Source: Ruditapes philippinarum
Taxonomy: Eukaryota
Assembly (NCBI RefSeq): GCF_026571515.1
Contig: NW_026853568.1
Span: forward strand, 1 to 64,000
Length of the DNA stretch: 64,000 nucleotides
Direction: 5' to 3'
The notes under the pieces are model-generated. The model did not search any database. It had not been told where the DNA came from and saw nothing but the letters and a program-made list of their open reading frames with translations. This document shows, piece after piece, positions 46,501 to 49,500 of this stretch; the first letter of the stretch is position 1; each line of letters opens with the position of its first letter. A program made the translations under genes and the position numbers.

Positions 46501-49500
46501 CACCTATATAGAATGTGTTAAGATGATTTTGTTCACATAGTTCTGAATGACTTTTAAGTATGTTCCTTAATTCATAAATAAAAATACTACACTCTTTATT
46601 TAAGTGTGTTTCCTCGAAGTGATGTTTGGATCGGTGGTGATTTCAGCATAAAAGATAACTTGGTCGATGAAAGTTGGTTGGACGTGACTTGGAAGGTTGA
46701 CGGCAGTTCAGATATGTATTTAAATGTACCAAATGTAAAAAATGTAAGCACGATAACATTATCAGTATTTTTTATCAGTCATTGTAGACGCTGAAATGTG
46801 TGTAGTGAAAAGAATCGTCAATTCATAAACAACTATTTCTATAACACTGTTTTTGTTTGTATTCTTTCTTCTTTTACTTCTTTTTCAGATTTTAACAAAC
46901 ATTTTTTATGAAGAATGGAACTTATTTGTTGATATCACAATGACGGCAACATTGAAATTGAAACTGTTTGGTGCAAAGTTTGACGTACATTTTCCGGAAG
47001 CTGCAGCCATCCAATCCTATACATCCATTGGCGGTAAACAAATAATAAGCACTCAGATGATATGAAAAATTTTAAAATAATTTCATTGAGTCTGCTATAT
47101 AATATTTTAAGAACACAAATGCTTCACATATAATTAACTTCATTTTTGTTACAAATTGAAAATTGTAAATAATGTTCCATTTATTTCTATTACAGGAAAT
47201 AACAGAACTTTGTGCGGGGGAAAATCAAATCCTCCAGGAATTTTCTTCTCAGTTATTTTGAACGTAAACCCTTTTCAAAATGTTCCGCTACTGCAGGATT
47301 GGCTTTTAAAAAACACTAATCGTGTGTATGCCTTTGTTACATATGAGCATGGAATAAATAGTTTTTGGTTTGATGTCAAGAATGACATTCATAATTATGA
47401 AAAAATCGTTGACAGATTACTTCATCTTTTGGAAACATCTCTTGAAGCACTTAAGATTGTTTTTAAAGAAACTACTAAAGCACTTATAACAGACATTAAA
47501 ATACTACTTTACACGTTAAAAAATCTGTTTCAAGACATTTTAGGAATGATCGTGTCTAATGACTTAGCTGAAGCAAAACGTATGTTTGAAAACGTATGGA
47601 CAACATTTGTCAGCCTGGAATCAAAAACCAAATTGTTCCTTTACGAGACTGAATTTATTGTGCATGAACTTTTCATAAACCTTAAATTGCAACTCGAAAG
47701 TGAAATAAATGCTTTAAAGACTTATGTAACAAATACTGTTAACAAAATAACAAACAGTTTGATCAAATCGGCTTCTTCATTTACAGAATTCGGATTGAAA
47801 TTTTCAGTGTCCTTGAAAATCATGGGGTTGACTTTGGGTGACTTTAAAATAGAGCTTGTTTATTCAGATGGCAGTCTGCTAAAGTGCAGTAGATTTGAAA
47901 GAATAAGAAATTTTCTAAAAGACGAAAAGGCACTTAGGTTGATTGGAAGATTAACTGTTGCCAAACAATTTAATTTCTTTTTGAAGTCAATGAATGGGTT
48001 TGAAATTGGTGGAGCATTCTCGGTGAGCAATTCAAAGTTTCTTATTCAACAACAAGTGTATTCAAATATATTAGGTTTGAGGGCGACAAGCGATTTGTTC
48101 ATAACCAATAGTCGCGTCTATCTGCACATTGAAGGAAATATTTGGGACATTTTTCTTGCTCATGTTGACATATATGCTTCCTCTGGTAAGAACTGGCATG
48201 CTCTGACTTTTAGAGTTATAGGAACTTTTGTTGCAAATGTTCGAAAGCGCCGACAAACACAAATAGACAGTTCATCTTTTCAAGGCAGTTATTTAGAGGC
48301 CATGAAAAAAAGCTATTAATTTTGTTGCTAATATGGCAAACAAAAGATTAAGTCAAGTTCAGTCGACCCTCACAAGTGCCCAGGAAAGATTTTCTAAGGC
48401 ACAAAAATGGCTTGAAAGTCAACAAAGGCGCGTAAAAAATGCAAATGAAGCTTTTGATAAAGCTATAAATTCGCTCGAAACGGCGAAAGATAAACTCGAA
48501 GCAGCAAAGAAGCCATTTGAAAAGGCTTTAAAAACACTTGAGGCAGCACAAAAAAATATTGATAACTTATGTAAAATCAAAGAATGTAAAACATTTTGTA
48601 TTCCTGGTGTAAAGTGCAGGACATGTACAAAAAGGTTCTTCGGTCGTAGAATACGATATCCCTGTTGCTTTCTGACAAAATGTATGTTAAGGATTCCCGA
48701 TCCTCTTTGCGTTATAGCAAATTTGGCTTGTAAAATAGTAAGAGCAGCTGCTTATGCGGCATTAGAAATTGCAAAAATATTTGTTAAGGCCCCTATGCTT
48801 GCATTTGACACTGCAAAGGTTTTTCTGTCTGTGGCACAGGTGGTTGTTGATAAATCAAGAATCATTCTTGACGTCGCTGTTGGCATTCTTGAAATGGCTA
48901 AAATTGGACTAGAATTTGCAAAAGGTGTCATTGAAGGTGCAAAATTAGCTGTTGAAGGTGTCAAATTTGCTCTAGGAGCAGCAGCTAAAGTTTTAGAATT
49001 TGTTATTGATATTGGTATCAAAACGATAATCGATGTAAAGAACTGTGGTTTTGATGTTCATGTGTCAACGTCTGATTTACCTGTATTTGCTGTATCGTGC
49101 GATGTAAATGCTTTTAAGTTAGGTTGGAGATCTATAAAAATAAGAATTAATTTCAAAAATATGTCATTCAAAGTGTTTGGAATGCTGCACGTGCAACAAT
49201 AGATGCTGTTATGAAACAACTTAAAAATGTCATTGGCATTGGCCGAAAACGCAGAGAAATACTATTTAAATCTAATGCACAGGTGCACGCAAAATTTATA
49301 AGAGCAATAAGAGATACTGACTTAATTCATGGATCTGGATTTGTTTTAAACGAAACTTTAGATATATCTAACAATATTTCCGGTCAGGGTGTACATATAC
49401 ATGATGATTATGGGAGCAGAGTTCTCCTTTTTAAAGAAAAATGTGTAAAGATATCGACTGTAATGGATTTCTTGAAGGAGGCATCCGACATTCTTCATAC

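Follow-up and report, generated by a model that had tools for sequence, protein, structure and literature searches.

What is the long heptad segment that lies between two RKRR motifs in a clam gene, where does it begin and end, and what might it do? The question comes from a 64,000-nucleotide stretch of Ruditapes philippinarum DNA (NCBI RefSeq assembly GCF_026571515.1, contig NW_026853568.1, positions 1 to 64,000 of the forward strand; hereafter the window), which carries two paralogous genes, here called gene B and paralog A. An initial annotation had picked out in gene B a cassette of ~333 aa between two furin-type sites and had likened the hairpin of its two heptad arms to pore-forming toxins and to class I fusogens. 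We find that these arms belong to a larger module with homologs as far away as marine bacteria, in which the arms are predicted to form an insert within a beta-sheet that is hydrophobic on one face. We regard the module as an unnamed variant of the amphipathic-sheet design.

The segment and its two basic sites

The RKRR motifs lie where they had been reported, at 48242-48253 (site 1) and 49244-49255 (site 2); RKRR occurs four times in the six frames of the window. An open reading frame (ORF) at 48306-49202 contains all the heptads quoted initially. The segment between the sites has no single open frame in the window, because the frame shifts near 48305 and again near 49159-49165. In short-read contigs of four runs from four studies the frame near 48305 is open at whole depth; near 49159-49165 three of the four runs show it open at whole depth, the remaining one at 13.4 of 20.4. 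One DNA run among the four may be the source sample, and the safer count is three studies. Since the short-read contigs keep the frame open, both shifts are assembly errors.

The two sites differ in their conservation. In an alignment of 82 homologs the strict R-x-K/R-R motif is found at the downstream site 2 in 73 of the 81 that cover it, and at the upstream site 1 in only 19 of 80. Site 1 is missing in the brachiopod, Mya, Dreissena and Mytilus members, and none of the three frames of paralog A at 4400-4700 has a furin motif of the site-1 type. A choanoflagellate homolog, P0127 of Monosiga brevicollis, has an arginine run at the position of site 2. By the alignment, then, site 1 is not a family feature and is limited to some lineages, and the idea that furin excises a cassette between the two motifs is not supported. 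The conserved unit is not the RKRR-to-RKRR stretch; it begins with about nine beta strands ahead of the stalk and ends with the helix that precedes site 2. In treating the segment as a unit, the initial annotation was right as to the arms and left out both the flanking beta strands and the cysteine tip, 54 residues long, that joins arm 1 to arm 2. Clam paralogs L004 and L006-L010 have at site 1 an insert of about 22 residues with a second basic motif.

A predicted coiled coil set in a one-sided beta-meander

An AlphaFold2 (AF2) model was made of P0001, an intact homolog that is 64% identical over the segment, from an alignment of 32 rows. The model (mean predicted local distance difference test score, pLDDT, 72; predicted template-modelling score, pTM, 0.44) has strands at residues 205-356, a helix at 375-465, a beta-hairpin at 475-506, a helix at 508-616, strands at 617-657 and a helix at 658-679. 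At 0.148 nm per residue the two long helices span about 13.5 and 16 nm, and the range 382-611 matches the dynein stalk with Z 12.1 and a root-mean-square deviation (rmsd) of 9.7 over 194 residues. In the models the arms are predicted to pair as an antiparallel coiled coil that emerges between the strands of one beta-meander, hydrophobic on one face, the sheet being predicted to continue across the hairpin. The model of a bacterial homolog has its elements in the same order as the clam-type model, and over its residues 380-994 the strands on either side of the stalk match single barrel sheets in one range.

The one-sidedness of the sheet is far outside chance. For the twelve predicted clam strands the two faces have Kyte-Doolittle (KD) hydropathies of +2.21 and -1.12, a contrast of 3.33 compared with 1.31 +/- 0.27 under the null and reached in none of 5000 shuffles, and for the 33 strands of the bacterial sheet the contrast is 2.65 (0 of 5000 shuffles); the Ig domain taken as control gave 1.89 (p 0.06). 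The clam strands alternate strongly, and their hydrophobic face is almost uncharged. Two amphipathic helices of the P0001 model, 375-392 and 658-679, adjoin the sheet. The helices beside the sheet and the first helical insert have a periodicity of 3.6-3.67, which for the insert is apolipoprotein-like, as against 3.5 for the stalk. In searches made with whole models, the sheet gave partial porin matches at rmsd 15-24 A.

The description of the arms in the initial annotation stands well. Both are heptad repeats with a best period of 3.50-3.52, and the power at 3.5 was reached by none of 5000 shuffles; their heptad moments are 1.27 and 0.95 at 3.5, compared with 0.19 and 0.31 at 3.67. The mean KD is -0.98 for arm 1, which is polar, and +1.01 for arm 2, which is hydrophobic on more faces and has hydrophobic residues at a, c, d, f and g, D/E at b and K at e across the 82 homologs. 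The longest uncharged run of arm 2 has a median of 10 residues, and its best 19-residue KD a median of 1.60, the real transmembrane (TM) helix reaching 2.74. The antiparallel hairpin of ~14 nm is likewise in keeping with the two predicted helices, with nested cysteine pairs at the tip and with arms that co-vary in bacteria. Because one partner helix cannot bury an arm that is hydrophobic at five of seven positions, it is likely under any reading that several stalks are bundled. A mutual-information scan of 127 sequences picked out no distinct register between arm 1 and arm 2 or between an arm and the downstream helix, gap and kinship noise being dominant, and the cysteine pairs 483-496, 890-896 and 622-640 were alone readable. 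A trimer prediction for residues 372-683 of P0001, in which the alignment was not used, scored 0.00 and is evidence neither way.

The tip is aromatic-rich and has 8-10 cysteines in 78 of the 82 homologs; its net charge has a median of +7 and is at least +4 in 61 of 82. The pairs C483-C496 and C486-C495 occur together, with no discordant case among the 82. Such nested pairs, gained and lost strictly together, fit an antiparallel hairpin closed by a disulfide ladder. The loop between the tip cysteines varies among paralogs. Bacterial tips have no cysteines, yet they too are basic and aromatic.

Two further observations on the tip were made by eye. In P0127, at about residues 1225-1320, it holds an insert of ~90 residues with furin-type arginine motifs on either side, as if extra furin-type sites had arisen in different loops in different lineages. 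In P0121, P0142 (crinoid), P0137, P0156 and P0162 the tip is a cysteine ladder of well over 100 residues, which suggests a telescoping beta-stalk.

Relatives from clams to bacteria

A profile of 12 clam rows matches 463 representatives at E 0.001; the listing covers 150 of them. Among the matches listed are nemertean, crinoid, hemichordate and amphioxus proteins, proteins of Oscarella sponges and the cadherin-bearing Monosiga brevicollis protein. The search chain extends to a jakobid and to marine bacteria, and a Mytilus protein turned up as the reciprocal match. When the clam and bacterial profiles were compared with hhalign, they aligned at 99.7% over 362 columns, in order from the strands to the capping helix, and with the coil removed the strands aligned at 95-96%; the meander before the stalk, coil excluded, aligns with both bacterial and sponge proteins. 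Judged by these profile comparisons the module is homologous from clams to bacteria and, given the choanoflagellate copy, predates animals. Stand-alone homologs outside animals, which had been hoped for, do exist.

Two layouts recur. In one, the module stands in anchored proteins with EGF, Ig or cadherin domains; in the other, found in sponges, amphioxus, the jakobid and marine bacteria, it is the C-terminus of an anchorless protein with a long repeated meander. The bacterial meander is internally repeated (hhalign 94.7%) and closes with an amphipathic helix, and bacterial and sponge proteins have at least 30 one-sided strands with few helices to cover them. With hhalign no internal repeat was found in the clam-type upstream region. 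In bacteria the lengths of arms 1 and 2 are 103/116 (n = 1), 142/154-157 (26), 181/193-194 (14) and 206/225 (1), rising in steps of about 39 residues; 3 of 45 are exceptions (142/116), and the correlation (r 0.92) is inflated by the kinship of the sequences. For the distant eukaryote homologs, remarks on arm length were made by eye.

Some members carry additional domains. Amphioxus P0192 has a phospholipase A2 match (E 4e-9) and a VWA match; P0192 and a second amphioxus protein, P0109, have tandem copies of the module and hence double hairpins. In bacterial P0243 and P0247, lectin-type domains (PF14200, PF00652) follow the module. Inspection by eye of two bacterial loci found no shared neighbours and no recognisable secretion or toxin neighbours. 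At a bacterial locus (L024:6794-7531) lies a coiled-coil ORF of 245 aa that overlaps the homolog at its start; the end of this ORF resembles the arm-2 repeat, and its NCBIfam match is to a generic coil only.

The module has no family profile in the copies of Pfam, NCBIfam and PHROGs that were searched, which gave generic coiled-coil matches only. A Flagellin_C match just above cut-off (23.4 bits on 38 residues) was read as composition. A sequence search of the PDB found no solved relative (best E 0.2 and 0.023), and the bacterial profile gave coiled-coil matches only. In the ESM Atlas the matches were to unnamed bacterial clusters, at 0.87 for the clam module, a lead only, and at 0.94 for bacterial P0196. 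PF28019, PF25885 and PF26052, which could not be named, are listed on three bacterial members and may represent a recent Pfam family covering part of the module. A suspected link to DUF6603 proteins found no support, either from a Pfam match or from a paper. A literature search, from which most subscription journals and supplements lay outside, found no description of the family. All this suggests a protein unit, as yet without a name, that has persisted from bacteria to clams and is older than the animals.

A proposed lipid-binding sheet and its alternatives

The reading that we put forward, tentatively and as somewhat short of probable, is that the module is a lipid-binding sheet with a tether of fixed length, whose cationic tip holds on to an anionic surface and which is shed at site 2. 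The greasy face of the sheet would hold lipid or rest on a lipid surface, like the apoB beta-belt or the grooves of bridge-like carriers; the stalk, about 14-16 nm of helix with a few nm of tip, would set the distance of the basic, aromatic tip, which might grip an anionic membrane or a microbial surface. The extra hydrophobic faces of arm 2 would be buried by bundling of several stalks. A furin-like cut at site 2 would release the EGFs, sheet and stalk from the helical-Ig-TM anchor, giving a secreted form such as the anchorless sponge and amphioxus relatives already have. In a wider and distinctly less likely version, marine bacteria, protists, choanoflagellates and many invertebrates would share extracellular lipid bridges made of an amphipathic beta-groove and a tunable coiled-coil arm, its cationic tip catching a target membrane at a fixed distance, surface-displayed and furin-released, carrying lipid to or from microbes, shells or neighbouring cells. 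If the module does bind or move lipid outside cells, it would be a kind of lipid carrier beside the apoB-type belts and the intracellular bridges.

In favour of the lipid-binding reading we count the one-sided strands of both sheets, their match to single barrel sheets across the stalk, the different periodicities of first insert and stalk, the repeated bacterial meander, the charge and the paired cysteines of the tip, the matched bacterial arm lengths, the conservation of site 2 and the phospholipase A2 match of P0192. Two known systems invite comparison. The top Foldseek match of the bacterial model is apoB100 (E 3e-7; the next is at 7e-4). According to PMC11839476, the apoB belt (PDB 9EA7), which is secreted, is an amphipathic sheet with helical inserts, one of which leaves from the third-to-last strand. 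The module likewise has a continuous amphipathic beta-meander with helical inserts, and its large insert also leaves three strands before the end. It differs in that its large insert is built as a heptad coiled coil ending in a disulfide tip, where apoB has broken amphipathic helices, in that the clam members are anchored by a TM helix and their sheet is short, and in showing neither a sequence match nor, in the Pfam scans, the vitellogenin-type N-terminal domain that PMC11839476 describes as characteristic of apoB and the large lipid transfer proteins. The RBG carriers (VPS13, ATG2, SHIP164, Hobbit and Tweek) have, according to PMC7613979, repeated multi-strand units with short helices and a hydrophobic face, terminal amphipathic helices, and a first domain that is Chorein_N-like. 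Repeats of this kind were found in the long bacterial members and not in the clam-type upstream region. The module differs from RBG proteins in being extracellular in eukaryotes, in its lack of a Chorein_N match and in the long hairpin inserted near its end, and the 50 matches listed in each of three structural searches include no RBG protein, although the sheet may still have an RBG-like groove fold.

Several points weigh against a lipid-binding sheet. The apoB100 match has a TM-score of 0.09 and an rmsd of 62 A, so that the two resemble each other in pattern but do not superpose; when PDB sequences were searched by profile, no apoB came up. Vitellogenin_N and Chorein_N are absent from all Pfam scans of the proteins, Chorein_N being missing from 16 bacterial and protist members at E 0.01 and from the sponge members. 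The clam-type and bacterial models both have pTM of only 0.43-0.44, pLDDT falls to near 50 in the outer half of the stalk in the clam-type model, and one-sided strands also arise where helices pack on a sheet. Kinship inflates the agreement in arm lengths, and bacterial P0196, P0200 and P0203 have no signal-like N-terminus, so that their location differs. A cut at site 2 is an inference from its sequence motif, and the oligomer state and lipid binding of the module are inferences too.

A lipid-free structural or adhesive stalk, its greasy face covered by its own helices and its hairpin a spacer presenting the cysteine tip to a protein or glycan ligand, much as the dynein stalk does with its binding domain, is the nearest alternative and a rather unlikely one. 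Leaving the Ig domain aside, the clam model matches the dynein stalk best, anchored members carry EGF, Ig and cadherin repeats, and the variable inter-cysteine loop and the 12 strong genome copies would suit a ligand-recognition family; the amphipathic helices 375-392 and 658-679 could provide the cover. The bacterial and sponge sheets, with their 30 or more one-sided strands, have few helices that could do this, and the tip stays basic and aromatic in bacteria, where there are no cysteines. What the module shares with the dynein stalk, SMC and Rad50 arms, chemoreceptors and CT398-type hairpins, namely a long antiparallel coiled coil with a small domain at its turn, is generic (6-14% identity), and it departs from all of these in its amphipathic-sheet base and cationic disulfide-ladder tip. 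That the arms are no stalk at all, but helices that spread out on the surface of a lipid particle in the manner of apoB insert 9, with the hairpin an artefact of modelling, is very unlikely. The very wide hydrophobic face of arm 2 would allow it, and AF2 wrongly collapses lipophilic surfaces of the apoB inserts, as PMC11839476 reports. The heptad moments given above favour 3.5 over 3.67, arm 1 is polar, and nested disulfides would lock the arms at the tip.

There remain the two designs named in the initial annotation. A membrane-piercing needle, in which furin-released stalks would assemble as in Tc toxins and drive cationic tips into a target membrane as a clam defence protein, is unlikely. 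It would account for an arm 2 hydrophobic at five of seven positions and for the expansion of the family in the clam; the tip may resemble cationic beta-hairpin antimicrobial peptides, and the bacterial hairpin aligns with SmhB in its pore form, over 203 residues (Z 11.0, rmsd 8.4), and with the pore hairpins of Tc toxins (Z 10.7-10.9, rmsd 8.1-8.3). These matches tie with those to chemoreceptors, SMC arms, CT398 and dynein (Z 10-12), a range common for long helices. Arm 2 keeps its charged stripe and falls well short of a TM helix in hydropathy (1.60 vs 2.74), and the tip has no hydrophobic helical hairpin. The two bacterial loci are no help to it, and neither are the profiles: the clam module has no ClyA-family or other toxin match in NCBIfam and nothing above cut-off for the ClyA family in Pfam, and bacterial P0172 scores 19 bits with cut-offs of 125 and 320. 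ClyA-type toxins have a five-helix bundle with a membrane segment between long helices, according to PMC6162564. The long helical hairpin is the likeness of the module to ClyA, XaxAB/YaxAB, SmhB and Tc toxin A (SmhB and TcdA superpose on the bacterial model with Z about 11); the module has two long helices rooted in a beta-sheet and no five-helix bundle, and its tip is cationic and cysteine-rich where ClyA has a hydrophobic segment, so that the ClyA/XaxAB-type design is not upheld. Should the module pierce membranes after all, it would be a new effector family in invertebrate defence; on either that reading or the lipid-carrier reading, the matched, stepwise arm lengths would be a natural series of rulers. 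Least probable of all, and hardly to be expected, is a furin-primed cell fusogen of the class I type, in which arm 2 would form the inner trimer and arm 1 the outer layer. Two heptad arms (period 3.5) around a cysteine loop, furin-type sites and a C-terminal TM helix recall the class I viral proteins, the 5-of-7 hydrophobic arm 2 would suit an inner core, and profile matches of arm 1 to helices of spike and HA2 were weak and non-significant (E 0.055 and higher). However, the polar arm precedes the hydrophobic one, which reverses the usual HR1-HR2 (heptad repeat 1 and 2) order of class I fusogens, and in those proteins the second heptad region is in one chain with the TM anchor and close to it, whereas here site 2 parts the hairpin from the anchor and arm 2 lies about 480 residues from the TM helix. 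Conserved cysteines appear to pair within each side of site 2, with no evident disulfide link across it, and many relatives are anchorless. According to PMC12845173 a class I fusogen depends on a hydrophobic peptide close to the cut; the module has no fusion peptide after either site, the next 20 residues being polar in every homolog that has the site, both for site 1 (n = 23; mean KD -0.67, maximum -0.14) and for site 2 (n = 76; mean KD -0.55, maximum 0.21). Foldseek of the clam model against the viral library listed no fusogen among 50 matches; in this search, in that against the PDB and with a wide aligner, the matches were filled by the Ig domain. The suggestion of a furin-primed fusogen is not supported.

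Gene B, paralog A and other features of the window

Gene B encodes, in order, EGF repeats, an unnamed upstream domain, the module, a helical domain, an Ig domain, an EGF, one TM helix and a short tail, and its product is a type I membrane protein of the cell surface. The gene is spliced, the segment lying in a 3.1-kb exon (Table 1). In two runs guessed to be RNA, contigs join this big exon to the following EGF exon, and in one run to the preceding exon; gene B is therefore transcribed and spliced. The intron 47036-47195 is absent from the contig of run X11. Searches by tblastn with homologs found no location for the first exon and signal peptide. The upstream domain is common to brachiopod, hemichordate and, weakly, choanoflagellate homologs, and its frame 44793-45737 has no Pfam match.

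Table 1. Coordinates in the window of gene B, its module and paralog A
Feature	Position	Strand	Remarks
Paralog A	2577..8168	+	layout as gene B; truncated by contig start
Gene B EGF/cbEGF exons	38529..44513	+	tblastn with homologs; exon limits 38529-38624, 40684-40812, 42289-42408, 42945-43076, 43328-43441, 43832-43942, 44388-44513
Exons of unnamed ~400-aa upstream domain	44853..47035	+	44853-45737, 46606-46773, 46886-47035
Big exon	47196..50345	+	whole module, downstream helical domain and Ig domain
First helical insert, amphipathic, non-heptad	47380..47775 (approximate)	+	model residues 68-200 of P0001
Beta-meander before stalk, nine predicted strands, one-face hydrophobic	47790..48240 (approximate)	+	
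RKRR site 1	48242..48253	+	in loop; minority of homologs
Arm 1, lead-in helix and polar heptads	48290..48569	+	heptads quoted initially at 48348-48557; frame shift near 48305
Tip, 10 cysteines, cationic, aromatic	48570..48731	+	beta-hairpin and nested disulfides, both predicted
Arm 2, heptads hydrophobic at 5/7 positions, D/E-K stripe	48732..49025	+	
Last three predicted beta strands of meander and capping amphipathic helix	49026..49243	+	frame shift near 49159-49165
RKRR site 2	49244..49255	+	conserved; end of module
Unnamed helical domain, then Ig domain	49256..50345	+	Ig at about 50090-50335
EGF, TM and cytoplasmic tail exons	50643..52843	+	EGF 50643-50765, TM about 52020-52122, tail 52670-52843

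The 5' exons of paralog A are off the contig start, and no second upstream-domain exon was found on this contig. In the assembly the reading frame of paralog A is broken twice, by an in-frame stop at 4532-4534 and by a shift near 4585-4590. Identity between the two window paralogs is 46% in arm 1, 52% in the tip, 57% in arm 2 and 68% in the beta strands after arm 2, and it is 39% for the upstream ORF and 51% downstream. Arm 2 had been placed among the best-conserved parts of the paralogs; its 57% bears this out in part, though the strands that follow are higher. In the clam genome as a whole there are 23 family matches, 12 of them strong and stop-free.

Elsewhere in the window, a 217-aa open frame at 21699-22352 has no Pfam match, and a 1.6-kb element is duplicated, at 944-2556 and 17167-18732, with 91% identity. 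Tandem arrays, whose repeat units measure some 140-160 bases or more, lie at 15572-16408, 22484-23640, 24729-25766 and 61385-62229. Short self-complementary elements like miniature inverted-repeat transposable elements (MITEs) are found at 14656-14822, 28398-28569, 37308-37478 and 59417-59638.

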